Part shown: in pieces, positions 1,001 to 60,691 of the stretch
How positions within the stretch are numbered: the first letter of the stretch is position 1
How the letters are laid out: every line of letters begins with the position of its first letter
From: Polaromonas sp.
GTDB taxonomy: Bacteria; Pseudomonadota; Gammaproteobacteria; Burkholderiales; Burkholderiaceae_C
Direction of reading: 5' to 3'
Length of the DNA: 64,000 bases
Assembly: GCA_043769295.1 (NCBI GenBank)
Contig: JAYVJL010000156.1
Location: 1,913-65,912 of the forward strand
Notes under the pieces: generated by a model
What the model was told of the DNA's origin: nothing
Database searches by the model: none
The model's input: only the letters and a program-made list of their open reading frames with translations
Position numbers and translations under genes: made by a program

Positions 1001-1046
1001 GCTACAAATAAAATAGCAAATTAGGCAATAAATACGCCGGCTATAT
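1001..1046 (+). repeat. Dispersed ~45-bp AT-rich repeat, forward copy
   Basis: gctacaaataaaatagcaaattaggcaataaatacgccggctatat; 39-40 of 46 positions shared with the copies at 14688, 58300 and 59046 (hand alignment). Confidence 0.8.
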
Positions 1047-1090
1047 CTGTATTTGAAGGTATTTTTAGCTTTTTAAGTGATTTGACCCAT

Positions 1091-1117
1091 AAAAAAAGGC
1101 GCCAAGCGCCCTTTTTT
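1091..1117 (-). terminator. Rho-independent terminator after the phasin gene (A-run/T-run on both sides, possibly bidirectional)
   Basis: aaaaaaaGGCGCcaaGCGCCctttttt: GC stem flanked by an A7 run and a T6 run, 18 nt downstream of the phasin stop. Confidence 0.6.
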
Positions 1118-1134
1118 GAGATGTTGGTTTGAAA

Positions 1135-1698
1135 TTAAACAGTTTTACTTGGTGCAGCGCGCTTGGACGCAGCCTTAACTGCAGGTTTTGAAACTGATTT
1201 GACGGCTGGTTTGGCCACGGGAGCCTTGGCAACAACCGTTTTTTTAGCCGCAGGCGCAGCTGCTTTAACGGTTTTTGCCGGTTTTTTTTGAATTTGTTTG
1301 CTTAATTCGTCCACACGCTGGATCAATGCCTGCACGTCTTTTGCTGACGGCACACCCAGCTTATTCAGGGCTTTGGCGACGCGATCTTCAAAGATGTTTT
1401 CCAGCTTGTCCCACTGGCCGGTGGCTTTGGAGGTGATGCCGTTGGCCATGTCGGTCATTTTGCTGGTGGTTTCGGTGATTTTTTCTTCAGCGGCGGCTTG
1501 GGTTTTGCGCTGCAAGCCCAGACCGTCTTTGACCAGGTTTTCAAACACTTTGCCGCCTTCGGCTTGGGCTTTGGAGAAAGCGCCCAGACCAGCCAGCCAG
1601 ATTTGCTGCGCAGATTCTTTGACGCTGCTCGCCAGTTGCGCACCAGTGTGGGCGCTGGCAGCTTTTTCAGCGGATAGTTTTTTTAGTTTTTTGACCAT
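1135..1698 (-). CDS. Phasin-family PHA granule-associated protein with Lys/Ala/Pro-rich histone H1-like C-terminal tail
   Basis: The N-terminal part (QIWLAGLGAFSKAQAEGGKVFENLVKDG...VPSAKDVQALIQRVDELSKQI) matches the PhaF/PhaI-type phasin pattern. The C-terminus is AKP/KPAVK-rich. Confidence 0.8.
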   Translation of the reverse strand: MVKKLKKLSAEKAASAHTGAQLASSVKESAQQIWLAGLGAFSKAQAEGGKVFENLVKDGLGLQRKTQAAAEEKITETTSKMTDMANGITSKATGQWDKLENIFEDRVAKALNKLGVPSAKDVQALIQRVDELSKQIQKKPAKTVKAAAPAAKKTVVAKAPVAKPAVKSVSKPAVKAASKRAAPSKTV

Positions 1699-1908
1699 GT
1701 GGCCTCCTAGGGTAAATCAAACAACAATTCGCGCCGTGATGCGCCAAGACTGCACTGACTTTAACCGCCGTGATGCACCGTGTTTAGGTGCAGGATTCTA
1801 GAACGCTAGAGGTCTTTTACTAGGGAAAAGCACCCTCTACACGGGTTTATGCTTAATTCATCAGACACTAATTTAGGCAAAATGAACGCTTCTATTTGGA
1901 GTCCACAC

Positions 1909-4080: not shown

Positions 4081-5157
4081 ATGATTTTGGTGACTGGCGG
4101 TGCAGGCTTCATTGGAGCTAACTTTGTCCTTGATTGGCTATCTGCCCATAATGAAGAGGTGGTGACGCTGGACAAACTCACCTATGCGGGCAATTTGGAG
4201 AACTTGTCCTCACTCGCCAACGACAAGCGCCACACCTTCGTTCAAGGCGACATCGGCGACTCGGCTTTGGTGACGTCTTTGCTGGCCAAGTACCAACCGC
4301 GTGCTGTGCTCAATTTTGCAGCGGAGTCGCATGTGGACCGCTCGATCCATGGGCCTGAAGACTTTATCCAGACCAATATTGTGAGCACGTTTCACCTGCT
4401 GGAAGCGGTGCGCGCCTATTTTGGCCAACTGGAAGGCGCTGCCAAGTCCAACTTTCGGCTGCTGCATGTGTCGACCGATGAGGTGTACGGTTCGCTCGCG
4501 CCCAAAGAGCCCGCCTTTACCGAAAAGCACCAGTACGAGCCGAACAGCCCGTATTCAGCCAGCAAAGCCGCGAGCGACCACCTGGTCCGGGCCTACCACC
4601 ACACCTATGGGCTACCGGTGCTGACCACCAATTGCAGCAACAACTACGGCCCCTACCATTTCCCTGAAAAGCTCATCCCGCTGATGATTGTGAACGCCTT
4701 GGCAGGTAAAAACCTGCCAATTTACGGCGACGGCCAGCAAATCCGCGATTGGCTGTACGTCAAAGACCATTGCAGCGCCATTCGCCGTGTTTTAGAAGCG
4801 GGCAAACTGGGCGAGACCTACAATATCGGTGGCTGGAATGAGAAGCCGAACGTAGATATCGTCAACACCATCTGCCAATTACTCAACGAGTTCACGCCCA
4901 GAGCCGACGGCAAGAGCTATGCAGAGCAGATTACTTACGTCACCGACCGCGCTGGCCACGATCGCCGCTACGCCATTGACGCCAGCAAGATTGAACGCGA
5001 ACTGGGCTGGAAGCCGGTCGAAACCTTTGAAACAGGCATCCGCAAAACAGTTCAATGGTATTTGACCAACCCAGACTGGGTCACCCATGTGCAAAACGGC
5101 AGCTACCGCGACTGGGTGAGCAAACAATACGCCGGTTCTGCACAGATAGCGGCATGA
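4081..5157 (+). CDS. rfbB: dTDP-glucose 4,6-dehydratase
   Basis: [59 protein letters not shown]. Confidence 0.95.
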
Positions 5158-6056
5158 CCACACCTCTGAAAATCCTGCTGTTTGGCAAAGGCGGTCAGGT
5201 CGGCTGGGAGCTGCAGCGCAGTCTGGCACCGCTGGGCGAGGTCGTTGCCGTTGATTTTGACAGTACCGATTTGTGTGGCGACTTCACCAATCCTGCCGGT
5301 TTGGCCGAAACAGTGCGCCAGGTCAAACCCAGCATCATCGTCAACGCGGCAGCCCACACCGCTGTGGACAAAGCCGAGTCTGAGCCTGAGCTGGCGCGCA
5401 CCATCAATGCAACCGCGCCCGGCATCATCGCTCAAGAGGCGCAGCGTCTGGGCTGCTGGATGGTGCATTACTCGACCGATTACGTGTTTGATGGCTCTGG
5501 CGAGCAGGCCTGGACAGAGTCTGACCAGCCCGCGCCACTGAGTGTGTATGGTCAAACCAAATGGGAAGGCGAGCAGTTGGTTGCCGCCAATTGCAGCAAA
5601 CACCTGATCTTCAGGACCAGCTGGGTCTACGCGGCACGTGGTGGTAATTTTGCCAAAACCATGCTACGACTGGCCAAAGAACGTGACAGTTTGAGCGTGA
5701 TTGACGATCAAATCGGCGCACCTACAGGGGCAGACTTGCTGGCCGACATCACCACGCTGGCCTTGCGTCAGGCCCAAACGCAGCCCGATCTGGCAGGTCT
5801 GTACCACCTGGTCGCCAGCGGCCATACCTCATGGCATGGCTATGCGTCGCTGGTGATTGAACAGGCACGGCAAGCAGGCATTCCGCTTAAAACACCTCAA
5901 AATGCTATACATAAGATAGCAACTAAGGCATACCCTACGCCGGCTAGACGTCCAATTAACTCAAAATTGGACACTTCCAAGCTGCAGGCAGCCTTTCAGG
6001 TGCATTTACCGGCTTGGCAGCAGGGCGTGACCCGCATGTTGGCTGAAATCATCTGA
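5154..6056 (+). CDS. rfbD: dTDP-4-dehydrorhamnose reductase
   Basis: [57 protein letters not shown]. The ATG at 5154 overlaps the rfbB stop (ATGA). The track ORF from 5055 is an upstream extension. Confidence 0.9.
5904..5946 (+). repeat. Segment resembling the dispersed ~45-bp repeat, inside the rfbD coding sequence
   Basis: gctatacataagatagcaactaaggcataccctacgccggcta, in an AT-rich patch of a GC-rich gene; read in frame as [14 protein letters not shown]. Confidence 0.4.
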
Positions 6057-14765: not shown

Positions 14766-15650
14766 TCAAATCAGGCTGTTTTTCAGCCAATCAGCAAAGA
14801 CAACGCACTCCCAACGCTCCATCACGCCCGTTCGCCAGCACAGGTAATGGGCATGGGGGCTGGTGCTGTTTCTGATGAATTCATCATGGTAGCCAAGCCG
14901 CACCAGCGTGCCCTGCTCAATCCACGGTGCTGCCAACTTCAAACGAACCAAGGCAACGCCCATCCCCGCAGCTGCGGCATCACAAAGCAAACCCATGTCG
15001 TTGAACTGTGATCCATCCAGAGGTTCTGACCAATCAAGATTGAGGGCTGAAAACCAGGTGCGCCAAGGTTCTAGCGGACTGCGCAGCAGTTTGGCAGCGC
15101 GGAAATCGTCAAGTGTTTCAAAAGGACCGTGCTCTCGCACATACAAAGGAGAAGCCATCGGGGTGATCTCGTCCTTCATCACGCAGACATGCTCAAGATC
15201 TGAATAGCGACCTGTGCCAAAGCGCACGATCAAATCGGCATCCTCCGCCACCACATCCAGCAAAGGAATCGAAACCTGAATGGTGACATCAATCTCTGGA
15301 TAAGCTTCAGTGAACTGGCCCAGACGCGGCAGCAAAATGGTACGGGAAAAGGTAGGCGGTGCCGCCAATCGCAGTTTACGCCGCCCTAAAGCAGGTGTTT
15401 TGCCGGGGAATTTCTGCAGAATGGACAAACCTTCACGCACATGCGCCAGATACTCACTTCCCTCTACAGTCAATGAAAAATCACTCCGACCAAAGAGGCG
15501 GGTCCCAACGATTTGCTCCAGCTGCTTAACACGATGGCTGACTGCGCTGGGCGTGACGAACAACTCCTCTGCTGTTTGCGTCACGCTGCGCAGACGTGCC
15601 AAGGCTTCAAAAGTCAGCAAGCATTGAATCGGTGGAATACGAACTGACAA
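14766..15650 (-). CDS. LysR-family transcriptional regulator
   Basis: N-terminal wHTH (FEALARLRSVTQTAEELFVTPSAVSHRVKQLE) plus a LysR substrate-binding domain. Confidence 0.85.
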   Translation of the reverse strand: MSVRIPPIQCLLTFEALARLRSVTQTAEELFVTPSAVSHRVKQLEQIVGTRLFGRSDFSLTVEGSEYLAHVREGLSILQKFPGKTPALGRRKLRLAAPPTFSRTILLPRLGQFTEAYPEIDVTIQVSIPLLDVVAEDADLIVRFGTGRYSDLEHVCVMKDEITPMASPLYVREHGPFETLDDFRAAKLLRSPLEPWRTWFSALNLDWSEPLDGSQFNDMGLLCDAAAAGMGVALVRLKLAAPWIEQGTLVRLGYHDEFIRNSTSPHAHYLCWRTGVMERWECVVFADWLKNSLI

Positions 15651-21693: not shown

Positions 21694-22449
21694 TCAGAAC
21701 TGGTATCGGCGCAAACCCCCATCGACCGCAATAACCGTGCCGGTGATGTAGCTGGCCAAAGGCGAAGACAGGAAGCACACCAGGTTGGCCAGTTCCTCGG
21801 GCTCACCGTAGCGACCCACCGGAATTTCGTTGTCCGACTGCCATTGGCGGTATTCCGGCGTGTAATTGCGCAAAATCTGCTCTGACAAAATGCGCCCTGG
21901 TGGTACGCAGTTGACAGTGATGCCATCCTTACCCACCATGCGCGACAAGCCTTTCGCCCAGCTGTGGATACCGGCTTTGGCGCAAAACGCACCGTTCACG
22001 TGCTCGGGCTCGCTTTTGCCGGTGATGTTGATGATGCGACCCCATTTGTTGGCGATCATTTGGTCAATCAGCGCATCGGTCACCTGGCGTGGTCGGTGAA
22101 AATTGAGCGTGATCGCCTCTTGCCAGCGGTCTTCAGAGACATGCAACTCATTAAAACTGCGCGAGCCACCGGCGTTGTTGATCAAAATATCCACCTGCCC
22201 CAAGCCTTTGATGGCGGCAGCGGCAAGGGTTTGGGCGGCGTCTTCGGCGTATAAATCCGACGCAATCACCACGGGGCGCTTGCCTCCATTGTTGACGATG
22301 TCGTCTGCCACCTCGTTCAGCAGGGCGACGCGGCGCGCCGAAATCGCCAGCTGTACGCCCTCTTTGGCCAGTGCAAAGGCGATGCTTTTGCCAATGCCGG
22401 TGCTGGCACCGGTGACCAACGCGGTTTTGTTGCTGAGCTGCAAGTCCAT
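21694..22449 (-). CDS. SDR-family oxidoreductase
   Basis: TALVTGASTGIGKS..NNAG..FCAKAGIHSWAKGLS; classical SDR length and motifs. Confidence 0.85.
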   Translation of the reverse strand: MDLQLSNKTALVTGASTGIGKSIAFALAKEGVQLAISARRVALLNEVADDIVNNGGKRPVVIASDLYAEDAAQTLAAAAIKGLGQVDILINNAGGSRSFNELHVSEDRWQEAITLNFHRPRQVTDALIDQMIANKWGRIINITGKSEPEHVNGAFCAKAGIHSWAKGLSRMVGKDGITVNCVPPGRILSEQILRNYTPEYRQWQSDNEIPVGRYGEPEELANLVCFLSSPLASYITGTVIAVDGGLRRYQF

Positions 22450-22473
22450 AATTCTCCTCTTTATTGATGAAAT

Positions 22474-45600: not shown

Positions 45601-48600
45601 AGATCTTGCAGGGCGGCATTTTCGTCGGGAGCCAGCCCCAGGTCTCGTATACGTACCTGCGCCAGGGTTGCGGCCATGCGCTTGGCGCGTTTCACATGCA
45701 TGGGCTGCAAATATTTATCAATGCGTAACATCAAATCGTTAGCATTGCCAGCGGCCGCTGTTGCGAAACTCAGGCGGGCAATAGCACCAGCGGGTATGCG
45801 CACTTGCACGCGCAACCCTGCGACGGGATCAAGTCCATTGATCGGGGAGCCATCTACGGTCCTGGCTTCGACCTGTACCGCCGGCTGCGTCACCGTTCGA
45901 CCACGCCCTACAAAAGAGCGCCTGTCTGACACGAAGTCGACAGCACCCACATTGACATCTGACTCAGCCAGAAAATGTGCCGCAACCAAGGTTGGGTCGC
46001 CCTGTAAACGCGGCTTACGCGTCAACATCATGGCGCGCCACTCAGGAAGCCAGTCCGTCTGCACGAATAGGTTGGAAAAAGCAGGATGTGCCTCGTCCGC
46101 CCGTGCGTCCGCCAGCACGGCTTCAAAGTATGAAATCACCTCCAGGTTCATCTCAACAGTGGACAGGTTCTGGAGTGTCACCATCCGCAATTCCGTGTCA
46201 TCTTCTGGACTGACCAGAACCGTGGTGTTGATCTCCAGTTTTTTGGATATCGCCTGGTATAACACCCGGTCTGCCAGAAAGGTCGCCTTGTATTGCCAGT
46301 CAGGATGTGGGGCAGGATGGTAGGTGATGGACGACAGGCGGGCATCTTTGTCTGCACGAACGTAAATAAACGAACCATACTGATCACGCAGCAGATCATC
46401 ACGCCAGCGCGTAATGTTGTGCGTGGCATTGTGGCCATGCCATCGGCTCACACCAGCTCCATTTGCACGCAATACAACGCTATAACAACCATTTGACAAA
46501 AGCTGCGTAGGCTGTTGACCGGTTGCTTGAGGATCAATATCTCGGGCTTGATACAGTTTTGTCTGCTCTTGAAATTGAGACTCGGGCAGAACACGTGGAT
46601 CGGCGGTCTTGATGATCTGGCGCGGTGTTTTTTCATGCAAAAGCGAATCAAAGGCCTGTACCAAAGGTGCACTGGCAAACCATCTGCGTGGTGCCTCGTC
46701 ACACAGCACGTTGCACAATGCGACCAAAGACATGCCTTGATGATGGGCCATGAAGGTGTTCACCAGACTGAAAGCCTGCGCGTCCGCTTGTCTCGACACC
46801 GTAAAATCCACCGCATCAATAAAACCGAATTTCCCACGTGCGCCGAGCAAAGTGAGTTTTTTTAAATTTGCTACCGCCTGCTGTGGTTCAAACATGCCCG
46901 CCATGACGCTGGCGTAGGGTGCGACAACACGGTCAAGGATGGGCGTGCGTCGCAATGCAAGTCTCGGCACGCCAAACGGCGAATATTGATAGGCGAGTGT
47001 ATGGTCTTGCGCAAAATAGGCTGACTCCGAAACACCCCAAGGCAGCTGTTCAGAATCGCCGAATGCCTGCTGCTCCATCACCGCCGCGTGTCCACTGACG
47101 TGCAGCAAGCCTTGATCTGGCTCCGTCATGATGAGCGAAGGCATCAAATACTCAAACATAGATCCCGACCAAGACTTGAGCCCTGGTGTCACACCAACCG
47201 TCAAAAATGAACGTCCAAGGGCAGCCCAATGCCGTTTGGGAACGTCGCCCTTGGCTATCGCCAAAAAACTGGTCTGTCTGGCCTCTGAGGCGATCAAATC
47301 GTAATAGCTCTTATCGAGTATTTTCTCGTGTACGCGCAACCCGATATGAAACAGATGACGCTTGGCGCTGTACAGACCGCTAAAATTCATGTCTTGAAAC
47401 AAACGTGTACAGCGTTCAGCCAGAAGTCGAAGCGCGGCTGCGTGTGCCAACTGTATTTCCTCCGTTTCACCGCTTTCAACACACTGTGAAAACTGCTGGC
47501 AAGCTTGCGCCAACGTCAGCAAGTGGCCCGCCAAATTTCCGCTATCGACGGTAGACACATAGGCAGGCATCAGCACTTCCAGCGAGCGCGTTTCATACCA
47601 GTTGAACAAATGTCCCTCGTTTTTAGGCAGTTTTTCAACGGTATCCAGCGTGGCTTGTAGCCGGTTGATGAGGTCAGCCGTTGAAATCCAGCCAAATTCA
47701 CGGGCACAGGCTACGGCCAAAAGATACAAACCAATATTGGTAGGAGAGGTCCGATGCGCGATGATGGGCTCAGGGTCCATCTGCAAATTGTCGGGCGGCA
47801 GATAATGATCATCGGGGCCGACTGTGGTTTCGAAAAAATGCCATGTCTGCAAGGCCAATGCGAGCAAATATTCGCGGTCATTCTCTTTAAGTTTGCAGCT
47901 GATTCGGCGATCAACTGGTTTGCTGGCCCAATAGGCTGTCAGTGGCGCGGCCGCCCATAACAGAAACATGCCCATACCCAGCCATGGATATGGGCTCATC
48001 ACGGCGGCGGCGGCCAGCGCACAACCCAAAATGGTCGTCGTTGCATGGCTGCGGACAAAAACCAATAAGGTATATCTCGCAGTAGCCTGTGCTTGCGCAG
48101 CGGTTGTCCATTCCAATAAATTCTTGTGGCTGACGGCCATACGCCAGACAGCTCTAAAAATCGCATCCAACATCAGCCTCGCCTGCGCCAAAAGCTGGCT
48201 CAACTGCCAAAAGCTTGCGACAACACTTCGTAGGAGATCACGCAGACCGACATCAAAAAAGTGCGGCCATGCAATGCCACGGCGCGTCGGCACCAATCCT
48301 GCCAATGCACCTACACCCGGCCCAACCCAGTAAGCGCAAAAAACAAGACCTACAGCTGTCACCCATGGTATGGATGCGGTAAAAACAACCCAGGCCAACA
48401 AGAAGAAAGATGCAGGAGCGATCAAGGAACGGCGTAGATTATCCAGCATGCGCCACGCACCCAATGCGTCAATCCCAAAATTTCGTGAACGACAGATGAA
48501 GGGGATCAGCTGCCAATCCCCTCGTGTCCAGCGATGCACGCGCGACGCGGCTACGCCAGCATGATGCGGTTGATCTTCCATCACGATGACGTCGCTTGCA

Positions 48601-50885
48601 TAACCGCAACGCGCGATGCTACCTTCCAGCAAATCGTGGCTCAAGACGGCACCCTCAGGCAACCTGCTGTCCAGAACCGCATAAACCGCAGCCACGTTGA
48701 GCAAACCTTTGCCGGTGAATGTGCCCAAACCAAACAAGTCTTGATACAAGTCTGAAGCATCGTTGCTGTAAGGATCCAGACCGCACTGCCCAGCAAACAT
48801 GGTGTGAAAGGGAGAGCGCTCACTCATACTTGAAAGCGGTGTGACAACACGTGGCTGCAATATGCCATAGCCAGCGGTCACGCGTTTATCAACGCGGTCA
48901 ATCTGCGGTGCATTTAAAGGGTGGGCTGCAATCGCCACCAGTTCCCGCAAAGAACCGGCAGGCAAGCCGGTGTCGCTGTCCAGTGTGAGTACATAACGTG
49001 TGTTCTCAGCCAACCTCATATTGCCATCAACCACCATAAATTCAGCGACTGCAGGACTGTCGACGTGGGACACTGAACCTGTAGCAATGAGACGCACCAA
49101 CATCTCCAGTTTTCCGCGCTTGCGCTCCCAGCCTATCCAGCGCCCTTCCGTGGGTGACCAGGTTCGAGATCGATGCAGCAATATAAATCGCGGAGCGGCA
49201 CCAGTTGCAGCGGGATAACTGGCGTTGAGTCCAGCCAATTTTGTCAACAGGTCATCCAGCAAGCCCTGGTCTGAAGCGAGCGTTTCTGAATCTGCGTCAT
49301 TCCAGTCGGTCAACAGCGCAAATTGTGCATTGTCTTCACGACTGGCAAGCCAGTGCAGACTGAGCCTGTGAGTCAACTCACTGTTGGATGAAACACTGCC
49401 CAGCATGCTCGGAAGCACGACAAGCACTCTGTGCTCATCAGGAATACCTGCGGTGAAATCCAGACGTGCCAAGAGCTGTACGCGTGTCGACTCGGCAATA
49501 AAACGGTGAATCAATGACGCCACCGCCTCAGATGCTGGCCATGCCATCAAAAAAACCGACACCCAACCAGACCAATTCAATACTGCGACAGAATGACTGG
49601 CCCAGGCAAGCAAAGCCAATGTGCCCACCAACCAGACGGTCAGATACAGGGGTAAGCGCCAAGCCTGTTTTATTTTTAGAGAAGGAAATTGTCTGGCAAG
49701 AGGCACTGTATGACGAATCATGTCCATCAGCAGCCCTCTGCCGGACCCTATCAGGTAATAGCCTGCCGTCTGCGCCGACGCAGAGTTGTCAGACTCGCCC
49801 GCAGCGGCGACGACGGTCTCTGCGATGATTCGTTCAGGAATACCCGTCTGCTGTGCCAACCTCTCCATCGCTTGGGTGATCTGCTGGCGAGTCATCTCAC
49901 TTTCTTTGGAAAAACTAGGCAGCTGGCGCAGAACCTGCAAAGAACGACTGACGGGTTCCAGAATGTCTCGCCACTCAAGCTGTCCAATCAATCTCAATGT
50001 CGAGATGATGTTGCTGACCGTCAGGTTTGATGCGACCTGCGCAGCCTGCCCTTCATTGATTATTTCCAAAACATCTTGGCAATGTTGGTCTGTCCAGCGT
50101 GTGATAGCCGACGCTGGCTCTGTTCTCTCGACAGACATGCGCTGCCACATCTGGGCAAGATAGACGTGCTCTAGGCCCATTTTTTGCATCAACGCGAAAA
50201 CGGCCTCAACGTCTTGCGGTCTGAGATTCTCTGAGTTATCCCAAACTGCGTGGGCCACCTCTCTGGCCACCTTGTTCCTTGCAATACGGTCCGCCATGCG
50301 ACGAAGATTCTCAAGAAGTACAACACGCAAGGTGGTTGGGAATGCCCAGAGTTCGCCCAGATTGAGCTCTCCACGCTCCTGGTAGGCCTTTAAAAATGCC
50401 GTGAAAAGGGCTGTATCCAACACGGAATCTGTATGCGCAACGTAAGCCCAGGCAATACCATAAATGCGCGGCAAACCTTCAAGAGGCTTGTCAATAAGCT
50501 TGGGTAGATCGGCAAAATACCGTTTTGGCACACCCTCTTCAATCTGCTGAAGCTGTGCCTCAATCAAATAGAAATTATCCAGTAGCCATACAGCGGCTGG
50601 TGTGACGTAATGACCGTTTTGCGATGTAACTGCGATGTAGTCATAGGCCTGACGCAGCGCTTTGATATTTTCTTTGACACGCGGAAAGAATGTAGGACCT
50701 CGATAAGCATACCGGTTGGTCTGAACAACCTGCGCTTTGGCTAAACTACGACCATGCTCTTCAAAGCGCACGGACCCAAACAATTCCGCACGTATCGGTT
50801 CTTGATCATTGTCGTGAGCAGCGACAATTATTTTTTTAGCATACGGACTTAAGGAATCCAGCAGGGATGTGACTGCCGTTGCCAC
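42669..50885 (-). CDS. ndvB: Cyclic beta-1,2-glucan synthase (NdvB/ChvB/Cgs type; glycosyltransferase plus GH94 phosphorylase-like domains)
   Basis: Uninterrupted 2738-aa ORF. N-terminus EPIRAELFGSVRFEEHGRSLA, TM block, GT region (LTLDSDT..RVHRWTRGDWQ), C-terminal GH94-like region (GTGDWNDGMN..GGQYAHAAVW). GTG start without a clear SD. Confidence 0.9.
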   Translation of the reverse strand: MATAVTSLLDSLSPYAKKIIVAAHDNDQEPIRAELFGSVRFEEHGRSLAKAQVVQTNRYAYRGPTFFPRVKENIKALRQAYDYIAVTSQNGHYVTPAAVWLLDNFYLIEAQLQQIEEGVPKRYFADLPKLIDKPLEGLPRIYGIAWAYVAHTDSVLDTALFTAFLKAYQERGELNLGELWAFPTTLRVVLLENLRRMADRIARNKVAREVAHAVWDNSENLRPQDVEAVFALMQKMGLEHVYLAQMWQRMSVERTEPASAITRWTDQHCQDVLEIINEGQAAQVASNLTVSNIISTLRLIGQLEWRDILEPVSRSLQVLRQLPSFSKESEMTRQQITQAMERLAQQTGIPERIIAETVVAAAGESDNSASAQTAGYYLIGSGRGLLMDMIRHTVPLARQFPSLKIKQAWRLPLYLTVWLVGTLALLAWASHSVAVLNWSGWVSVFLMAWPASEAVASLIHRFIAESTRVQLLARLDFTAGIPDEHRVLVVLPSMLGSVSSNSELTHRLSLHWLASREDNAQFALLTDWNDADSETLASDQGLLDDLLTKLAGLNASYPAATGAAPRFILLHRSRTWSPTEGRWIGWERKRGKLEMLVRLIATGSVSHVDSPAVAEFMVVDGNMRLAENTRYVLTLDSDTGLPAGSLRELVAIAAHPLNAPQIDRVDKRVTAGYGILQPRVVTPLSSMSERSPFHTMFAGQCGLDPYSNDASDLYQDLFGLGTFTGKGLLNVAAVYAVLDSRLPEGAVLSHDLLEGSIARCGYASDVIVMEDQPHHAGVAASRVHRWTRGDWQLIPFICRSRNFGIDALGAWRMLDNLRRSLIAPASFFLLAWVVFTASIPWVTAVGLVFCAYWVGPGVGALAGLVPTRRGIAWPHFFDVGLRDLLRSVVASFWQLSQLLAQARLMLDAIFRAVWRMAVSHKNLLEWTTAAQAQATARYTLLVFVRSHATTTILGCALAAAAVMSPYPWLGMGMFLLWAAAPLTAYWASKPVDRRISCKLKENDREYLLALALQTWHFFETTVGPDDHYLPPDNLQMDPEPIIAHRTSPTNIGLYLLAVACAREFGWISTADLINRLQATLDTVEKLPKNEGHLFNWYETRSLEVLMPAYVSTVDSGNLAGHLLTLAQACQQFSQCVESGETEEIQLAHAAALRLLAERCTRLFQDMNFSGLYSAKRHLFHIGLRVHEKILDKSYYDLIASEARQTSFLAIAKGDVPKRHWAALGRSFLTVGVTPGLKSWSGSMFEYLMPSLIMTEPDQGLLHVSGHAAVMEQQAFGDSEQLPWGVSESAYFAQDHTLAYQYSPFGVPRLALRRTPILDRVVAPYASVMAGMFEPQQAVANLKKLTLLGARGKFGFIDAVDFTVSRQADAQAFSLVNTFMAHHQGMSLVALCNVLCDEAPRRWFASAPLVQAFDSLLHEKTPRQIIKTADPRVLPESQFQEQTKLYQARDIDPQATGQQPTQLLSNGCYSVVLRANGAGVSRWHGHNATHNITRWRDDLLRDQYGSFIYVRADKDARLSSITYHPAPHPDWQYKATFLADRVLYQAISKKLEINTTVLVSPEDDTELRMVTLQNLSTVEMNLEVISYFEAVLADARADEAHPAFSNLFVQTDWLPEWRAMMLTRKPRLQGDPTLVAAHFLAESDVNVGAVDFVSDRRSFVGRGRTVTQPAVQVEARTVDGSPINGLDPVAGLRVQVRIPAGAIARLSFATAAAGNANDLMLRIDKYLQPMHVKRAKRMAATLAQVRIRDLGLAPDENAALQDLNTALIYTSGRPVTERASLDLRQLWRFGLSGDKPIILVRIHSNHGLGLVHTLLRAQPWWSFCGLAVDLVILNSEINSYLMPLQRDILNLRDRTIQQSMHSFPRSDIAGFYLLSESEVSPSERATLSVLARIVLVADGRPLAQQILSQRDTVKNQPGKEAITTSFLTSSLSTTSRQKEIPKEPQGVFDFVTGEFQFHIDASQRPMRPWVNVISNASFGCQVSEAGAGYTWAVNSRLQQLTPWSNDPVQDPGFEHFILQDRATHALLALTPSTESGSVPSFRVRHGQGYSVFECLHDQLELETTFFVDINDSVKFVRVQLHNAGSKKRHLRVHGMVEWQMGANRTDRRTVSVWKSKNMPVLYAQQCESRSGFGGSTAFLALTGLPEPIQWTCDRSEFFNSAGQLVMPVSLNQKMAGSLDPGAALFGDLTIQAGQRLNLTFMLGYAADAAQAEQLAQTWQTRDVAHALDSVKNHWSGVLEKIQVKSPDPLFDALMNRWLLYQTLTSRLWAKAGFYQAGGAFGFRDQLQDAMAFAVSDPQRLHDQIVLNASRQFPEGDVQHWWHAPSGEGVRTHFSDDLLWLPYACAHYVEVTGDANILDQDVHFIEGPAIAEGAEDAYYTPLVSQLSASVYEHCALTIDKSLATGAHGLPLMGTGDWNDGMNRVGHEGRGESVWLAWFLCAVVDRFAPLAESRGEGERAATWRSSREGWITAVHSHGWDGEWFRRAFFDNGAALGSSANAECRIDLIAQAWSVLSNASSDHFTQPAMRAMNRELMDRDAGLLRLLAPPFSKSENNPGYIQAYPPGVRENGGQYAHAAVWAMMAQAKTGDAEAAWESFKALSPAHRHADPQRGPLYELEPYVMAGDIYGAAPYVGRGGWSWYTGSAAWLYRAGIENLLGLQVRHGQISLFPCLPAEWTFVDLKLNIQGRMVHIRWQRVGMMTAGDFKPDRTLSEGQWLSLADLPARSVLLVQGLQTQDFVV

Positions 50886-55304: not shown

Positions 55305-55976
55305 TCAAGTTTTTGATGGGAAAACGACCATTGCAGCCCCTGCCTGCCACGGCGCGCAGGGTTGCATGACTTGCTTGAACGCGGCAGACACCTCAAAAGC
55401 CCTGAGCCAGGCCTGCACCTGTGGCCAGGGCTGGGCGGCGAACCAAGCCGCATCCGTGTGCGCAAATTGACGAATAAATGGGGCTATGCCGTCGTCAAAC
55501 ATGCCTGGACTGCTATTAAAAAGAGAGTGATTCTGTGCCGATCCGGCCTCCAGATCAGCCACAAACTGCGCTGCCGTGGCCCGACTCATCTGCTTGTCGG
55601 CACCTGCCTCATGGGCATAGCGTTGCGGGTATTTGTAGCGATCCAGGTGGTGTTTGAACGCACCATCGCAGCGCGACAGCAGCGACATGCCCGCATCAAA
55701 CGTGTCGGTGTCGGTTTCAGCGGGTAACCCATGCTCAGGGTCGTTTTGGCGCAGCGCCCACAACATGATCTCCAGACTTTGATCGATAACTTGGCCATCC
55801 GGGGTGATCAGCACTGGCACCGTGCCTTTGGGTGAGGCGGCCAGCAACTCAGCAGGTTTGTTTCGCAACACCACCTCGCGCAGTTCACAAACAATGCCGC
55901 TGGCCAGCAAGGCCAACCGCGCCCGCATGGCGTAGGGACAGCGGCGAAAAGAGTACAGGATGGGTAGATTCGCCAA
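55305..55976 (-). CDS. Glutathione S-transferase family protein
   Basis: LYSFRRCPYAMRARLAL..KGTVPVL thioredoxin-like N-domain plus helical C-domain. Confidence 0.8.
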   Translation of the reverse strand: MANLPILYSFRRCPYAMRARLALLASGIVCELREVVLRNKPAELLAASPKGTVPVLITPDGQVIDQSLEIMLWALRQNDPEHGLPAETDTDTFDAGMSLLSRCDGAFKHHLDRYKYPQRYAHEAGADKQMSRATAAQFVADLEAGSAQNHSLFNSSPGMFDDGIAPFIRQFAHTDAAWFAAQPWPQVQAWLRAFEVSAAFKQVMQPCAPWQAGAAMVVFPSKT

Positions 55977-56039: not shown

Positions 56040-57026
56040 TTACTCACCTTCATAGGCTTTCTCTGGTTTCTCTTTTTTCGGCATTTTCACGCCGATGTAA
56101 GGCTGATGCCGCTCTTTCGCCAGCTCAATCTGCCGTTGTCGCTCCTCAAAACGGGCAATCTGCTCGGGTGTCTTGGTGTCATGGCAGTGCGGGCAGCTCA
56201 GTCCCAGCACGAAATACGACGATTCCTTGTCCGCCTGGCTGATCGGCTCGCGGCAGGCGCGGCACAGGCCGTAGTCGCCGGGTTTCAGGCCCTGCCCCAC
56301 GGTGACGCGCTCGTCAAACACAAAACACTCGCCCTGCCACAGGCTGTCCGCCTCGGGCACGGTTTCCAGATACTTCAAAATCCCGCCTTCCAGGTGGTAG
56401 ACCTCCTCAAACCCCTGGGCCCGCAGGTAGGCGGTGGATTTTTCACAGCGGATGCCACCCGTGCAAAACATGGCGACTTTGGTTTTTTTGGTTTCAGATT
56501 CAGCAATCTGCGGCTGGTGCATCAACCACTCGGGAAACTGCGAAAAACTCTTCAGCCTCGGGTCAACCGCACCTTTGAAGGTACCAATATCGACCTCATA
56601 GGTGTTGCGGGTGTCGATCACCAACACGTCCGGGTCGCTGATCAGCGCATTCCAGTCCTGCGGCTTCACGTACTTGCCCACCAGTTCGTTGGGCTTGACG
56701 GTGGGCACACCCATGGTGACGATCTCGCGTTTGAGCTTCACCTTCATCCGGTAAAACGGCGGCTTGTCAGACCAGGATTCTTTGTGCTCCAAATTTGACA
56801 GCCGTGGATCGTTTTTAAGATACGCCAACACCGCACGCACCCCCACCTCTGGCCCGGCGATGGTGCTGTTGATGCCCTCATTGGCCAGCAAAATCGTGCC
56901 CTTGACGTCCTGCGACTCGCAAAACGCCAGCAAAGGATCTTTCATCTCGGGGAAATCCGGGAGTTCGACAAACTTGTAGAAAGCTGCCGTGAGGTACGCG
57001 CTGGGGGATACTGAAGAATCTGTCAT
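56040..57026 (-). CDS. trhO: Rhodanese-domain protein of the UPF0176/YceA family (tRNA uridine(34) hydroxylase TrhO)
   Basis: AAFYKFV..LLANEGINSTIAG..VIDTRNTYE..MFCTGGIRCEKS; C-terminal CxxC..CPHC. Confidence 0.75.
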   Translation of the reverse strand: MTDSSVSPSAYLTAAFYKFVELPDFPEMKDPLLAFCESQDVKGTILLANEGINSTIAGPEVGVRAVLAYLKNDPRLSNLEHKESWSDKPPFYRMKVKLKREIVTMGVPTVKPNELVGKYVKPQDWNALISDPDVLVIDTRNTYEVDIGTFKGAVDPRLKSFSQFPEWLMHQPQIAESETKKTKVAMFCTGGIRCEKSTAYLRAQGFEEVYHLEGGILKYLETVPEADSLWQGECFVFDERVTVGQGLKPGDYGLCRACREPISQADKESSYFVLGLSCPHCHDTKTPEQIARFEERQRQIELAKERHQPYIGVKMPKKEKPEKAYEGE

Positions 57027-57140
57027 AAGAACGCTATTTTATCGACTGCACGGCCCGTGGGCCTGGCGCAGATCAAGCGCGATGAAATCGGCACCGTGCC
57101 TGCGGCTTTACCTGCCCTTTGCACCCACTTGCAAGCCTGT

Positions 57141-57196
57141 ACAGACGGCGTACAATTACTAACCAATGGGTTATTAATATCCTATTTTTTTGTAGG
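57141..57196 (-). repeat. Degenerate, longer reverse copy of the dispersed repeat upstream of rpoH
   Basis: acagacggcgtacaattactaaccaatgggttattaatatcctatttttttgtagg; only the two ends match the family. Confidence 0.3.
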
Positions 57197-57267
57197 ACTT
57201 GAACCTTTTCTTTAGCACTCCCTCCAACCGAGTGCTAATATTACGGATCGAACAAAGGAGTTTTTCA

Positions 57268-58239
57268 ATGTCTATGACGATGAATGCTTTGCAACCTGTC
57301 AAGGCTTCTGCCCTCGCGGCCTCCAACACGCTGGCCGTAGCCACGCCTTGGGCAATGACGCCGACGCTGGGTAACCTTGATGCCTACATCACGGCTGCCA
57401 ACCGCATGCCCATGCTCACCCTTGAGGAAGAGCAGCGTTTTGCCAAAAACCTGCGTGATAACAACGACCTGGACGCCGCCGAGAAGCTCGTCCTGTCGCA
57501 CCTGCGCTTGGTTGTCTCCGTCTCCCGCAAGTATCTGGGTTACGGCCTGCCACATGGCGATTTGATCCAGGAAGGCAACATCGGCCTGATGAAAGCCGTC
57601 AAACGCTTTGACCCCGACCAGGGCGTGCGCTTGGTGAGCTATGCCATGCACTGGATCAAGGCCGAAATCCATGAATATGTGTTGAAAAATTGGCGCATGG
57701 TCAAGATGGCGACCACCAAAGCACAGCGCAAGTTGTTTTTTAACCTGCGCTCGATGAAGCAGGAATACAAAGCCGACGCCGCTGCATTGGGCGACGAAAC
57801 ACACAGCAACACGCTGTCTGAGAGCGAAATCGGTCTGATGGCCAAGACGCTGAACGTCAAGCCCGAAGAAGTGATCGAGATGGAAATGCGCCTGTCCGGC
57901 GGCGACGTGCTGCTGGACCCGAGCCCGTCCGACGACGGCGAAGAAGCCTTCGGCCCGATTGCCTACCTGTCTGACACCGGCCACGAGCCGACCCAGATGA
58001 TCGAAGCGCACCAGCGCGACGTGCTGGCCAGCGACGGCATCGCAGCCGCCCTCGCCAGCTTGGACGAGCGCAGCCGCCGGATTGTGGAAGAGCGCTGGTT
58101 GAAGGTCAACGACGACAGCTCGGGCGGCATGACGCTGCACGATCTGGCCGCTGTTTACGGCGTCAGCGCCGAGCGGATTCGCCAGATTGAGGTGGCGGCG
58201 ATGAAGAAGATGAAGAAGACGCTGGCTGAGTTTGCTTAA
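57268..58239 (+). CDS. rpoH: RNA polymerase sigma-32 (heat-shock sigma factor)
   Basis: LVLSHLRLVVSVSRKYLGYGLP..DLIQEGNIGLMKAVKRFDP and the RpoH box QRKLFFNLR. ATG at 57268 with AAGGAG upstream; the track ORF start at 57199 is an extension. Confidence 0.9.
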   Translation: MSMTMNALQPVKASALAASNTLAVATPWAMTPTLGNLDAYITAANRMPMLTLEEEQRFAKNLRDNNDLDAAEKLVLSHLRLVVSVSRKYLGYGLPHGDLIQEGNIGLMKAVKRFDPDQGVRLVSYAMHWIKAEIHEYVLKNWRMVKMATTKAQRKLFFNLRSMKQEYKADAAALGDETHSNTLSESEIGLMAKTLNVKPEEVIEMEMRLSGGDVLLDPSPSDDGEEAFGPIAYLSDTGHEPTQMIEAHQRDVLASDGIAAALASLDERSRRIVEERWLKVNDDSSGGMTLHDLAAVYGVSAERIRQIEVAAMKKMKKTLAEFA

Positions 58240-58343: not shown

Positions 58344-58371
58344 AAAAATTAATTTGAATACCAAGACTTAA

Positions 58372-58539: not shown

Positions 58540-59019
58540 ATGACCGATTTAACCCCTGAAACCGTCGAATACGCTGGCTTTTGGATTCGCGTGGGGGCAT
58601 CCATCATCGATTCGGTTTTACTCATGCTCATCACCTATCCGCTGTTGTTGGCGGTGTATGGTTGGGCGGGGATTGATTACAGCCGAGCCATGCGAACCAC
58701 AGGGTTTGTGGATATTTTGCTGACTTGGGTGTTCCCAATTGTGGTGATTGTCTGGTTTTGGATGCAAAAACAGGCCACACCGGGCAAGATGTTGCTGTCG
58801 CTGCGCGTGGTGGATGCGCAAACAGGCAAAGCGCTGACATTCGGCCAAAGCATAGGGCGCTATTTGGGCTATTTTGTCGCGGGCGTCCCGTTTGGACTGG
58901 GTTTGATCTGGGTCGGTTTTGACCGCAAAAAGCAAGGCTGGCACGACAAACTGGCTGGCACGGTGGTGATTCGCGACAAAAAGCGTGGGGTCGAGGCAGT
59001 TAAGTTCCCACAGGCTTGA
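58540..59019 (+). CDS. RDD-family membrane protein
   Basis: YAGFWIRVGASIIDSVLL..TPGKMLLSLRVV..RYLGYFV..DRKKQGWHDKLAGTVVI; ATG at 58540 with AAGGAG upstream. Confidence 0.8.
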   Translation: MTDLTPETVEYAGFWIRVGASIIDSVLLMLITYPLLLAVYGWAGIDYSRAMRTTGFVDILLTWVFPIVVIVWFWMQKQATPGKMLLSLRVVDAQTGKALTFGQSIGRYLGYFVAGVPFGLGLIWVGFDRKKQGWHDKLAGTVVIRDKKRGVEAVKFPQA

Positions 59020-59045
59020 GGGGCTATTTTCAGTCTTTATTTAGC

Positions 59046-59091
59046 ATATAGCCGGCGTATTTATTGCCTTAATAGCTATTTAAAATGTAGC
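59046..59091 (-). repeat. Dispersed ~45-bp AT-rich repeat, reverse copy
   Basis: atatagccggcgtatttattgccttaatagctatttaaaatgtagc; its reverse complement shares 40 of 46 positions with the copy at 1001. Confidence 0.8.
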
Positions 59092-59119
59092 AAAAATCAG
59101 GCAAACTCAACCTGACATT

Positions 59120-60052
59120 TCAACCCGACATCTCCACCCGATACTCCACCGCCAGCGTGTGCGATTGACCCGCTGGAACGGTGACAGCGTTGTCCAGCGC
59201 GTTGCCGCTTTCGACACAAACGAAGCTTTTCCAGCCTCCCCCATCGTCATCAGCACCCAAATCGCCCATCTGCGCGGCGCGGGTTGCCCACGGGTTCCAG
59301 ACGACGGTGGATTGGCTGCCAAGTTTGGCGATGTGGATGCGGCGCTGCAAAACCGGGTCGACGATAGTGCAGCGGTTGGCGCTGTTGGTGTAGACGCGAT
59401 CGACCTCGGCGGTGAAACCGACAGGGCCGGTTTGGTCGCCCTGCGTCCAGCCGGCGGCTTTGTCGTGGAAATGGACGCCGTCCAGGCCTTCAACCTGCAC
59501 TTGCGCCACGTCGCTGACATGGAAGTAGGTGTGCAGCGCTTCAGAAATGGTGAAGTCTGACTCGCCCAGGTTGCGGGTAATCAAGGCGATTTTGAGGCTG
59601 GCACCGACGTTGACCAGCAGGTCGAGCCGGCTGGCGACATCACCTTGTGGCCAAAATTTCTGCGTTTCAGCTGTGGGCAGGTAGCAGAGGGCGATTTCTG
59701 TGGAGCCGTCTTCCAGGCTGCGGCTACCGGTGACTTGCCAGGGCTGGGCGCGGGCGAATCCGTGGGCGGGGAATGTCGAATCCGAGTCATGCGCGCCAAA
59801 CCACGGCCAGCAGATGGGGATGCCACCGCGAATGGGCGTGTTGGGGGCGAAGGTAGCGGCGGGGGACATCCAGACCACCGGCTCTGGCGTGGAGACGGGT
59901 TGCCAACTGAACAGGTGGCCCCCTTGCAGGCAGAGGCTGGCCGTACCGTGGGCGTTGGTGATGTGGGCGGCGAGCAGGCCATCGCCGATGGGCTGGAAGT
60001 GCAGTTGGCCGGGGATCGTGAAACGGTCGTTCAGCTCAGCAATGGACAGCAT
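59120..60052 (-). CDS. D-hexose-6-phosphate mutarotase (aldose 1-epimerase family, YeaD-like)
   Basis: GGHLFSWQP..IRGGIPICWPWFG..PAHGFAR..EALHTYF..DRVY pattern. Confidence 0.8.
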   Translation of the reverse strand: MLSIAELNDRFTIPGQLHFQPIGDGLLAAHITNAHGTASLCLQGGHLFSWQPVSTPEPVVWMSPAATFAPNTPIRGGIPICWPWFGAHDSDSTFPAHGFARAQPWQVTGSRSLEDGSTEIALCYLPTAETQKFWPQGDVASRLDLLVNVGASLKIALITRNLGESDFTISEALHTYFHVSDVAQVQVEGLDGVHFHDKAAGWTQGDQTGPVGFTAEVDRVYTNSANRCTIVDPVLQRRIHIAKLGSQSTVVWNPWATRAAQMGDLGADDDGGGWKSFVCVESGNALDNAVTVPAGQSHTLAVEYRVEMSG

Positions 60053-60058
60053 GAACGT

Positions 60059-60691
60059 TTACTTCAACAGCAGCGCAATATCCGACGCCAACGCCGGCGC
60101 ACCGCTGCCGTAGCGGGTGTAGAGGCGGACGTTGCCTGTGGTGTCGTACACAAAGCTGCCTGCGGAGTGGTCCATGGTGTAGCTGGTGTCGGTTTTGCCG
60201 GGCGACTTTTTGTAATAGGTTTTGAAGTCTTTGGCGACCACGGCCAGTTTGTCGGGCGTGGTGCGCAGGGCCAGAAAGGTCGGGTCGAAGTTGGCCATGT
60301 AGGCTTTGAGGACTTCGGGGGTGTCGCGTTCGGGGTCGATGGTGACGAACAGGCCTTGCAGCTTGTCGCCGTCTTTGCCGAGCAGCTTTTTGACCTCGGC
60401 CAGCTCGGCCATGGAGGTGGGGCAGACGTCGGGGCACTGGGTGTAGCCGAAGAACAGCACGACGACCTTGCCGGCAAAGTCTTTGATACTGCGGGGTTTA
60501 CCGTTGTGGTCCAGCATCGCGCCGTCGGCGGCGAAGTCGCGGGCGTAGTCGGCACCGGTGATGTCAACGGCTTTGAATTCCAGTTTTTTCTCGATACAGG
60601 CGGTAAATAGGGCTGTAGCCGGCGTGATTATTGCCAAAGAAGCTATTAATTTAATAGCATTTTGCAGCAGTTCGCGTTTATCAAGCATCAT
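60059..60691 (-). CDS. SCO1/SenC-family copper chaperone for cytochrome oxidase
   Basis: GKVVVLFFGYTQCPDVCPT..DPERDTP..HS..YD pattern; N-terminal hydrophobic leader ending LFTAC. Confidence 0.85.
   Translation of the reverse strand: MMLDKRELLQNAIKLIASLAIITPATALFTACIEKKLEFKAVDITGADYARDFAADGAMLDHNGKPRSIKDFAGKVVVLFFGYTQCPDVCPTSMAELAEVKKLLGKDGDKLQGLFVTIDPERDTPEVLKAYMANFDPTFLALRTTPDKLAVVAKDFKTYYKKSPGKTDTSYTMDHSAGSFVYDTTGNVRLYTRYGSGAPALASDIALLLK
60614..60658 (-). repeat. Reverse copy of the dispersed repeat, encoding most of the SCO1 signal/anchor segment
   Basis: tgtagccggcgtgattattgccaaagaagctattaatttaatagc; read on the minus strand as AIKLIASLAIITPAT. Confidence 0.7.

Follow-up and report, generated by a model that had tools for sequence, protein, structure and literature searches.

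A long, over-represented DNA unit in Polaromonas and related Comamonadaceae probably evolves in place and may be a recognition motif of the uptake-signal type

A 64,000-nucleotide stretch of the genome of a Polaromonas sp. (assembly GCA_043769295.1, contig JAYVJL010000156.1; the whole stretch is referred to here as the window) contains an AT-rich sequence unit that recurs in both orientations. A sequence-only reading of the window had described this unit as a dispersed repeat family that behaves like repetitive extragenic palindromic (REP) sequences or transposable elements of the miniature inverted-repeat type (MITEs). Our analysis makes it highly probable that the unit is instead a motif of duplex DNA that evolves in place and is neither a mobile nor an RNA element. 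In its full form, our proposal is that the unit is an in-place recognition motif maintained by molecular drive linked to DNA uptake. We advance this fuller version tentatively, at somewhat less than even confidence, by analogy with the uptake sequences of other bacteria.

The reality of the family was assessed with a profile hidden Markov model (HMM) trained on the 13 copies listed in the window, with 20 second-order Markov shuffles of the window as the null. The sequence-only reading had placed 13 principal copies and would have considered the family unremarkable if shuffled sequence contained as many. All 13 were recovered where it had placed them, with scores of 25.2 to 47.4 bits, and the maximum over the 20 shuffles was 10.4 bits. 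The 13 copies align over approximately 50 bp without internal gaps, and their flanks are unrelated. A 14th copy, at 55488-55532 on the minus strand, lay outside the HMM training set and scored 20.8 bits (E = 2.2e-5). The window total is therefore 14 copies in 64 kb, seven forward and seven reverse, or about one per 5 kb, and the description of a dispersed family in both orientations is correct. Four copies had been suspected of dropping out. One of them, at 57141, was indeed lost, having no HMM match, and the other three, at 5904, 22474, and 20542, were kept (39.8, 31.8, and 25.2 bits). Neither of two possible relics survived: 13037 had no HMM match, and 17428 reached only 4.7 bits (E = 2.5). 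The copies in the window are the following.

997-1045, plus strand: unit copy, intergenic, between a phasin gene (1135-1698, minus) and a gene at 2-838 (minus) that is RdgC-like by synteny; 47.1 bits
5900-5948, plus strand: unit copy within rmlD (5154-6056, plus), sense, frame 1, 17 residues encoded; 39.8 bits
14684-14733, plus strand: unit copy, intergenic, between an FAD-linked oxidase gene (13077-14603/14675, minus) and a LysR gene (14766-15620, minus); 44.4 bits
20538-20586, plus strand: degenerate unit copy, intergenic, between a transhydrogenase alpha gene (19250-20377, minus) and a TctC gene (20641-21651, minus); 25.2 bits, E = 8.8e-7
22472-22519, plus strand: unit copy, intergenic, between a short-chain dehydrogenase/reductase (SDR) gene (21694-22449, minus) and an open reading frame (ORF) at 22564-23751 (minus); 31.8 bits
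23777-23826, plus strand: unit copy in the 3' end of a FAD_binding_2 flavoprotein gene (23738-25186, minus), antisense, frame 0, 13 residues; 40.2 bits
30553-30601, minus strand: unit copy, intergenic, between an ORF at 29376-30449 (minus) and a major facilitator superfamily (MFS) transporter gene (30667-31854, minus); 41.3 bits
34678-34724, plus strand: unit copy within a rubredoxin reductase gene (33943-35151, minus), antisense, frame 1, encoding ASRREISMVSYENSS; 31.6 bits
41165-41213, minus strand: unit copy within an amine-oxidase-like gene (40524-42215, plus), antisense, frame 0; 40.6 bits
42056-42102, minus strand: second unit copy in the amine-oxidase-like gene (40524-42215, plus), antisense, frame 2; 43.2 bits
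55488-55532, minus strand: weak unit copy inside or adjoining an ORF at 55305-55976 (minus); 20.8 bits
58299-58347, minus strand: unit copy, intergenic, 3' of a sigma-70-family gene (57268-58239, plus) and 5' of an RDD-family gene (58540-59019, plus); 45.1 bits
59047-59094, minus strand: unit copy in the convergent spacer between the RDD gene (plus) and an aldose 1-epimerase gene (59120-60052, minus); 47.4 bits
60613-60662, minus strand: unit copy at the 5' end of an ORF at 60059-60691 (minus), or in the spacer 3' of a UbiA gene (60704-61573, minus), the start codon of the ORF being uncertain; 44.6 bits

In window order, seven of the first eight copies are forward and the last six are all reverse. 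The 59047 copy is faced by the stop codons of both of its neighbors, the RDD gene and the aldose 1-epimerase gene. The amine-oxidase-like ORF that holds two copies is intact: it is a single 563-amino-acid gene in the ENA record, with a Pfam Amino_oxidase domain at residues 74 to 483. The region of the lost 57141 copy (57100-57230) is a divergent promoter region between an ORF at 56040-57026 (minus) and the sigma-factor gene. It contains a tRNA T-arm-like GGTTCAAGTCCTAC and a unit-core-like TACGCCGTCTGTA; ARAGORN found no tRNA there, and the HMM found no unit.

The repeated entity is the entire unit and not a short core, as judged from the near confinement of the 10-mer core ACGCCGGCTA to full units: the core occurs eight times in the window, with 0.1 expected, and seven of the eight occurrences are within units. 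The sole core outside a full unit, TAGCCGGCGT on the plus strand at 34601-34610, lies approximately 70 bp from the 34678 copy, in the same gene and inverted. Its codons, in the Rossmann region, read N-A-G-Y, and it is probably a chance "seed." The HMM found 207 further copies in approximately 100 loci of other genomes, the loci being the matches listed (those named below carry L numbers). The consensus from 219 copies, aaatTGCTATaaaTttaATAGCt..TtAGGCAATAAATACGCCGGCTAgAG.C.tAtTT.....t.aaa, has a sharp 5' edge and an invariant ATAGC. Conservation in these 219 copies runs on 3' of GGCTA, giving a unit of approximately 70 bp, not the approximately 45 bp first claimed. The consensus holds 59.7 bits of information over 52 positions, and 55.7 bits when the calculation is limited to the 93 copies found independently of the scan pattern. 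Scores are peaked at 30 to 50 bits, with a modest tail (31 matches at 10 to 25 bits).

The consensus consists of four conserved blocks: TGCTAT at positions 5 to 10, ATAGC at 18 to 22, AGGCA at 28 to 32, and ACGCCGGCTA at 39 to 48, the last of which includes the palindrome GCCGGC. The A/T tracts between the blocks have a spacing peak of 10.5 to 11 bp (p = 0.0005, position permutation), and this phasing suggests DNA that bends or wraps around a protein or a complex of proteins. The first two blocks lie in an imperfect palindrome, TGCTAT-N7-ATAGCA, and the 60614 copy does contain the perfect palindrome gctattaa-a-ttaatagc described earlier. The two alternative hairpin folds that had been proposed did not hold up, as they show neither compensatory change nor excess stability. 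The 55 copies with A at position 6 keep C at the partner position, the 45 copies with C at position 10 keep A at theirs, and the alternative fold is likewise without compensation. The folding energies of the window copies, calculated for either strand as RNA or DNA, had z scores of +0.9 to -1.7 relative to shuffles. A third, 3' inverted-repeat module, GGCAT..ATGCC, was rejected (5 of 219 copies versus 3 in the control flank). The ends of the unit are unrelated to each other, with no terminal inverted repeats, and no target duplications were found at the copies. An Rfam scan of the whole window returned no match at gathering thresholds, and a separate scan for tRNA and tmRNA genes also found none. 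In the literature, core and consensus strings were absent in any relevant context, and no paper containing the sequence was found, in agreement with the earlier statement that the unit resembles no catalogued family. A MITE has been reported in Polaromonas sp. JS666 (cited in PMC10969869).

The position of the copies relative to genes was determined with a simple codon-usage gene caller for all 219 copies. Seventy-six (35%) were called intragenic and 143 intergenic, which is not the extragenic location of REP elements, bacterial interspersed mosaic elements (BIMEs), and the paired REP arrangements known as REPINs. Some N-terminal intragenic calls reflect over-extended start codons, so the true intragenic fraction is somewhat lower; the mid-gene cases are secure. 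Intragenic copies are evenly distributed along genes (43 sense and 33 antisense) and have a strong frame preference: frame 1 accounts for 35 of the 43 in sense orientation, and frame 0 for 23 of the 33 in antisense. In the sense direction, the invariant TAG at unit positions 19 to 21 closes frame 0. Many intragenic copies are flanked by K/N/S/T-rich peptide. For 128 of the intergenic copies, a gene was called on each side. Convergent genes enclose 44 of these, tandem genes 78 (34 copies in one orientation and 44 in the other), and divergent genes only 6. At least one stop codon is faced by 122 of these 128 copies, which bears out the observation that intergenic copies sit at gene ends, and divergent promoter regions are avoided. 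Neighboring copies are rarely within 110 bp of each other (5 of 123), and those that are have mixed orientations without inverted pairing. The occurrence of the unit in either orientation, its avoidance of promoters, and its tolerance within genes together indicate that it acts as duplex DNA. Its presence, and not its exact site, seems to carry its value.

These data also bear on whether the unit could be an RNA-level or transcription signal, such as a terminator, an mRNA-stabilizing element of the 3' untranslated region (3'UTR), a small RNA, or a promoter, including one with the sigma-54-like GG-N10-GC found in AGGCAATAAATACGCC. We find this explanation barely credible. Many copies do occupy 3'UTR-like positions near stop codons, and a classic terminator follows some of them closely; the spacing of GG and GC is also that of sigma-54 promoters. 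However, gene-relative orientation is essentially random, both within genes (43 versus 33) and in tandem spacers (34 versus 44); the 44 convergent copies and the 76 called intragenic leave over half without a downstream gene start; and divergent promoter regions are depleted of copies (6 of 128). There is likewise no covariation, no excess folding energy, and no Rfam match. The promoter readings specifically, based on sigma-70 hexamers or the sigma-54 GG-N10-GC, were rejected in view of the orientation and context statistics.

The origin of an intragenic copy can be followed most closely in rmlD. The 5900 copy involves no indel at its site; the only length difference from Salmonella RmlD (PDB 1kbz), a two-residue gap, lies upstream of the unit. 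The residues AYPTPA.RP are a conserved motif of the family. Among 120 RmlD homologs, the clade extending to approximately 75% identity reads NAI[HNY]KIAT[QKE]AYPTPA.RP, and distant betaproteobacterial RmlDs have a segment of equal length that reads EAI.A[VI]PTSA[FY]PTPA.RP. Codon-aligned matches to the 52 unit positions form a graded series.

L112 and L114: 19 to 20 of 52 positions; zero unit copies in 12.6 kb and 20.9 kb
L127: 27 of 52 positions
L113: 35 of 52 positions
L126: 36 of 52 positions
The window and L128: 37 of 52 positions
L125: 39 of 52 positions

The loci with 27 or more matches belong to genomes that carry the family. The length of the segment is identical throughout the series, and different lineages bear different subsets of the consensus bases. 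The residue changes under the unit follow its sequence: S is replaced by Q, K, or E, which fits NAG over the TAG of the unit; E, A, or D by H, N, or Y, which fits NAT; Q, K, T, or R by R, T, or K, which fits ANA; and V-P by I-A, which encodes the invariant ATAGC. Of 100 in-clade RmlDs, 21 have another residue even at the conserved proline of YPTPA, and in L125 the codon there is AAT, exactly as in the unit. This codon reading comes mainly from protein alignments, with which the DNA mostly agrees; an exception is L113, which has GAA at the Q/K/E position. The pattern of residues and codons fits a constraint on the DNA rather than on the protein.

Two other genes gave comparable results. For the flavoprotein copy at 23777, the peptide encoded by the reverse strand keeps the register of 1qo8's conserved C-terminal helix, FGRIAGDNAAKHAL, and this copy is therefore not an insertion. 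In a methylmalonyl-CoA mutase gene (L079, with an ortholog in L030), the unit-encoded TAGVSAALAAITNAA aligns gap-free to QALAERCLAALTECA of the human enzyme. Together with RmlD, at least three intragenic copies overlie homologous codons without insertion. A copy that appeared to be missing from one of a pair of loci (L087 and L018) proved to be a weak in-place match in a GatA-like gene, where the two differ by two to three substitutions and no indel. The rubredoxin reductase copy at 34678 is the only one that looks like an insertion. Compared with PDB 2v3a, the protein has 15 to 18 extra residues here, within a loop that immediately precedes the second GxGxxG and is hypervariable in length. 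This loop ranges from 3 to approximately 45 residues among relatives (homologs P0121-P0240), and approximately 100 rubredoxin reductase homologs keep the unit-encoded SSRRIxCLxSYENNS. The loop (34600-34760 in the window) contains a low-complexity N/K/E/S-rich filler after the unit peptide, e.g., NKGNENAASFS, which suggests AT-rich expansion segments around some copies.

Gap-free replacement could also result from templated copy-over, either by short-patch ectopic gene conversion or by recombination with a reverse-transcribed or single-stranded donor. Such a process would be length neutral, and selection would then repair stop codons and critical residues. It would account for a score distribution that is peaked and not continuous and for the presence of full-length units even within conserved genes. 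The acquiring sites were already matched at 17 to 18 of 32 high-information positions, including an 8-mer, ACGCCGGC, in L112 that is a possible pairing seed. The RmlD series argues against this process, since its grades (27, 35, 36, 37, and 39 of 52) with different base subsets indicate stepwise change and not one event followed by decay. The rubredoxin reductase loop copy, which adds sequence, is a point in favor of copy-over; no donor locus, retroelement, or recombinase was found among the window genes examined. We know of no established copy-over mechanism for 50-bp patches that lack flanking homology, and on balance we consider this explanation improbable.

Retention of the unit was followed at orthologous positions. 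An all-against-all comparison of the fetched loci gave 11 apparent orthologous pairs, from species with 75 to 85% DNA identity, in which the unit is co-located; 10 of the 11 were measurable, and the eleventh ran off a contig end. The contexts of the pairs vary and include a 3'UTR just upstream of a classic terminator, mid-gene positions, and a site 15 bp from a divergent ATG. Within pairs, the high-information positions are kept in both members and the variable positions drift. Of 177 deviations from the consensus, 63 are common to both members, which indicates common descent of the site. Window copies can be followed in the same way, since L113 and L128 carry orthologs of the copies at 997 and 5900. 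The ortholog of the 997 copy is kept in both of these syntenic loci despite large indels elsewhere in the spacer. A bidirectional intrinsic terminator (1075-1120; GC stem GGCGCC AAGC GCGCC flanked by an A-run and a T-run) sits between the phasin gene and the 997 copy in the window and is kept in L113.

We next consider a non-autonomous mobile element, like a MITE, a REP, or a Rickettsia palindromic element (RPE), that is mobilized in trans by a transposase encoded elsewhere. Several properties of the unit are those of such an element: a high-copy family dispersed in both orientations, a habit of sitting at gene ends, the imperfect palindrome, the one copy that coincides with 15 to 18 extra residues, and the presence of copies in phage contigs (see below). 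Against it stand the three intragenic copies that are in register with homologous codons and insertion-free, and the graded substitution series in RmlD. The unit also has no terminal inverted repeats or target duplications, its hairpin shows neither covariation nor stability, copies lack the paired arrangement of REPINs and BIMEs, and no filled/empty polymorphism differing by one unit was seen among the orthologous pairs. The earlier statement that no transposase is associated with the family held for the 20 ORFs that adjoin copies and for the genes called in L001, the remaining ORFs of the window being unscanned. The REP/MITE-like behavior attributed to the family is not what we observed, given the 35% of copies called intragenic, at least three gap-free codon overlays, the graded series, and the ends without inverted repeats. 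For the intragenic copies, the mobile-element reading is largely refuted; for the family as a whole we regard it as very improbable, and it and the RNA or promoter readings are both poorly supported.

To define the distribution of the unit, one genome per GTDB species was scanned with a pattern, which gave at least 110 stretches. Approximately 100 of the at least 110 stretches listed came from approximately 20 metagenome-assembled genomes (MAGs) of Polaromonas, Rhodoferax, "Ca. Aalborgiella," and unnamed Burkholderiaceae and Comamonadaceae; many of the carrier Polaromonas MAGs originate from glacier-fed streams and ice. Nine pattern matches in unrelated phyla all failed the full-length HMM and are due to chance. 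Among the matches listed, the unit is restricted to one clade, its carriers being approximately 20 Comamonadaceae MAGs. Across the loci, 225 matches of at least 15 bits are split 107:118 between the strands. The carrier MAGs have a GC content of 50 to 55%, approximately 10 points under that of typical Comamonadaceae, and relatives at 60 to 64% GC (including Rhodoferax MAGs at 60 to 62%) have few or truncated copies. The window showed no direct orthology with the fetched genome loci, and synteny was recovered via the RmlD homologs in L113 and L128. Relative to the window, L113 (8199-8795) and L128 (7317-8832) have an extra adenine-glycosylase gene, with one further ORF in L128, placed between a gene for a 670-amino-acid reductase fusion and rmlB. 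Additional unit copies bracket these extra genes, at 8128 in L113 and at 7223 and 8149 in L128.

The unit also occurs in phage contigs. Nine IMG/VR contigs matched the pattern, and eight of the nine contain true copies (30 to 51 bits). These unit-bearing contigs encode large terminase, major head and tail proteins, RecE/RecT, and primosomal proteins. Temperate-phage-like genomes of the carrier clade thus bear the unit at a density like that of their hosts. In one phage contig (L117, 4541-5035, minus), the unit forms the hydrophobic N terminus MRIFAIYFIAALAINTPAIA of a thermonuclease-like endonuclease; in another (L120, 1661-3883, plus), it lies in the 3' end of the large-terminase gene. GenBank phages and PLSDB plasmids contained zero full copies. 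The sole match in an isolate was one truncated half-unit in 40 kb of the megaplasmid of Polaromonas sp. P1-6.

The properties described above led us to compare the unit with sequences that mark self DNA for uptake. The Pasteurellaceae and the Neisseriaceae are, as far as we know, the only bacterial families for which sequence-specific uptake of DNA is established, and we know of no uptake specificity in the betaproteobacterial family that hosts the unit. Known uptake sequences have cores of 9 to 12 bp in motifs of at most 30 bp, and whether they accumulate by molecular drive or by selection is debated. Our proposal is that the unit would be a sequence-specific recognition motif on double-stranded DNA, approximately 50 to 70 bp long, which many point substitutions would create and keep wherever the local sequence tolerates it: in 3' intergenic spacers, in variable protein loops, and in coding segments with a compatible peptide. 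We infer that a protein binds it. The unit may then act like an uptake signal, tagging DNA as "self" across the genome. Fragments that bear the motif would be bound and imported by competent cells in preference to others, and better-matching alleles would be over-transmitted by transformation and recombination. Such molecular drive would make the motif build up, hold it at orthologous sites, and let it overwrite codons.

The likeness to uptake sequences is one of analogy, not of membership, and extends to several features. Between 34.5 and 65% of uptake sequences are located in ORFs, where they have frame biases and favor poorly conserved residues (PMC2817400). The unit, too, is over-represented on both strands in one clade, arises by in-place substitution with a frame bias, and favors tolerant protein segments. 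The uptake signal sequence (USS) of the Pasteurellaceae (Hin-type AAGTGCGGT) is similarly clade specific, dense, and found on both strands, and it has many genic copies with a frame bias in tolerant protein segments (PMC2817400). In Haemophilus, the USS has a short GC-containing core with helically phased T-tracts on one side, comparable to the core and phased A/T tracts of the unit, and is tolerated in coding genes (PMC3458573). Intergenic copies of both lie at gene 3' ends, and both arise by substitution and not by insertion. The USS differs in its size, with a 9-bp core and a motif of approximately 30 bp compared with approximately 70 bp for the unit, which is three to five times longer, and in forming terminators from inverted pairs, whereas unit copies are single. 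It is also denser, at approximately one per 1.2 kb in H. influenzae (1,471 copies [PMC2817400]) versus approximately one per 5 kb.

The DNA uptake sequence (DUS) of the Neisseriaceae (12-mer AT-GCCGTCTGAA) is likewise a genomic "watermark" restricted to a betaproteobacterial clade, with intergenic copies at 3' gene ends and, in N. meningitidis, 34.5% of copies in ORFs (PMC2817400), compared with 35% for the unit. Unlike the unit, in which no dialects were seen, the DUS is 12 bp long, is recognized by the minor pilin ComP, and has lineage dialects (PMC3630211, PMC3868556). The DUS often forms inverted pairs in terminators, and its sequence has no similarity to that of the unit. Repeats of other types are less similar. 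REP elements, BIMEs, and REPINs are also short dispersed repeats at 3' gene ends with a roughly similar density, and in E. coli gyrase, IHF, and other nucleoid proteins bind them. In contrast to the unit, with its single copies, in-place origin, lack of stem covariation, and 35% of copies called intragenic, REP elements are extragenic GC-rich palindromes with a maintained stem, usually in inverse pairs, and with a link to a REP-associated tyrosine transposase (RAYT). RPEs and in-frame MITEs resemble the unit in having copies within intact coding genes that encode stereotyped peptides, but RPE insertions add residues and at least three unit copies replace homologous codons one for one. The cyanobacterial highly iterated palindrome HIP1 (GCGATCGC) and Chi are likewise over-represented and share with the unit an occurrence in both coding and non-coding DNA and maintenance by selection or drive and not by transposition. 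They are only 5 to 8 bp long, and Chi is strongly co-oriented with replication, whereas the association of the unit with skew is weak.

A number of observations weigh against an uptake-linked motif. At approximately 70 bp, with 34 positions above 1 bit, the unit is far longer than known uptake sequences, and drive alone would need an uptake apparatus that reads approximately five helical turns. The peaked score distribution suggests a family more bimodal than a simple balance of mutation and drive would produce. Neighboring copies share an orientation more often than not (78 versus 45), which is unexpected for uptake sequences. So is any association with GC skew; the one we observed was weak (61:39) and not robust when counted per locus, and a replication-strand bias was rejected on these grounds. 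No lineage dialects were found, the consensus being uniform from MAG to MAG. The copies in phage contigs are compatible with uptake but are not predicted by it, and the rubredoxin reductase copy, lying in extra sequence, may mean that some copies arrive by insertion. In addition, the 219-copy set was partly ascertained via an exact 17-base pattern.

The main rival is an array of binding sites for a clade-specific nucleoid-associated or chromosome-organizing protein (of the gyrase, condensin, or Fis/IHF type), kept by organism-level selection for site density. Orientation-independent placement in tolerated locations only, together with strong retention at orthologous sites, would be expected of such an array. 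The four blocks and the A/T tracts phased at 10.5 to 11 bp suggest wrapped or bent DNA, and high information with a uniform consensus in approximately 20 genomes fits one conserved protein partner. The correlated orientation of neighbors could reflect organization at the scale of the chromosome, and the density of approximately one unit per 5 kb resembles that of REP or Chi in E. coli. Selection at each site would, however, have to outweigh residue changes such as that of the proline of RmlD YPTPA, which is hard to envisage with several hundred redundant sites. Phage contigs bear the unit at a similar density, and the partner protein remains putative. We judge a nucleoid-protein array unlikely, though it deserves the most serious consideration of the alternatives.

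The window is identical to a metagenome scaffold in ENA. Apart from the unit, it is an ordinary segment of bacterial chromosome, with genes for a phasin, rml functions, TctC/Bug proteins, LysR regulators, and a GH94 cyclic-glucan-synthase-like protein. The last is a single 2,738-amino-acid ORF (42669-50885, minus) with GH94/glycoamylase domains (Pfam, ENA gene call) that resembles cyclic beta-1,2-glucan synthase. It contains zero unit copies over 8.2 kb, which is not significant at the intragenic density seen elsewhere.

We return to the proposal of an in-place recognition motif of the uptake-signal type. There is a substantial chance that this over-represented recognition motif, which evolves in place, marks a third origin of uptake specificity or else has no precedent. 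At less than even odds, Comamonadaceae of cold environments may have evolved, independently, a third system for DNA uptake or for the recognition of "self-DNA." If it exists, it would read a composite signal of approximately 60 bits over 50 to 70 bp, across approximately five helical turns, and its drive would be strong enough to overwrite codons of conserved enzymes, such as the Pro changed to Asn in RmlD's YPTPA, and to spread to temperate phages resident in the hosts. Should the uptake link prove mistaken, what is left would be no less unusual: very long recognition motifs of a new class, evolving in place and with a putative protein partner. In practical terms, these units should not be labeled MITEs in repeat annotation, and stereotyped peptides, AInnIAxQAINTPA and LAGVxIAxxAIKNIA among them, are to be expected in gene calling. 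The HMM is a sharp taxonomic marker for binning carrier MAGs and for assigning phage contigs to hosts. For the biology of the group, the unit records with unusual clarity, codon by codon, how a DNA motif has overridden protein sequence. It shows the genomic behavior of uptake sequences, with several times their information content, in an unrelated and environmentally abundant group, the Polaromonas of glacier-fed streams and ice, where the question of drive versus selection would become testable in a new system and the unit itself could serve as bait for the protein that recognizes it.

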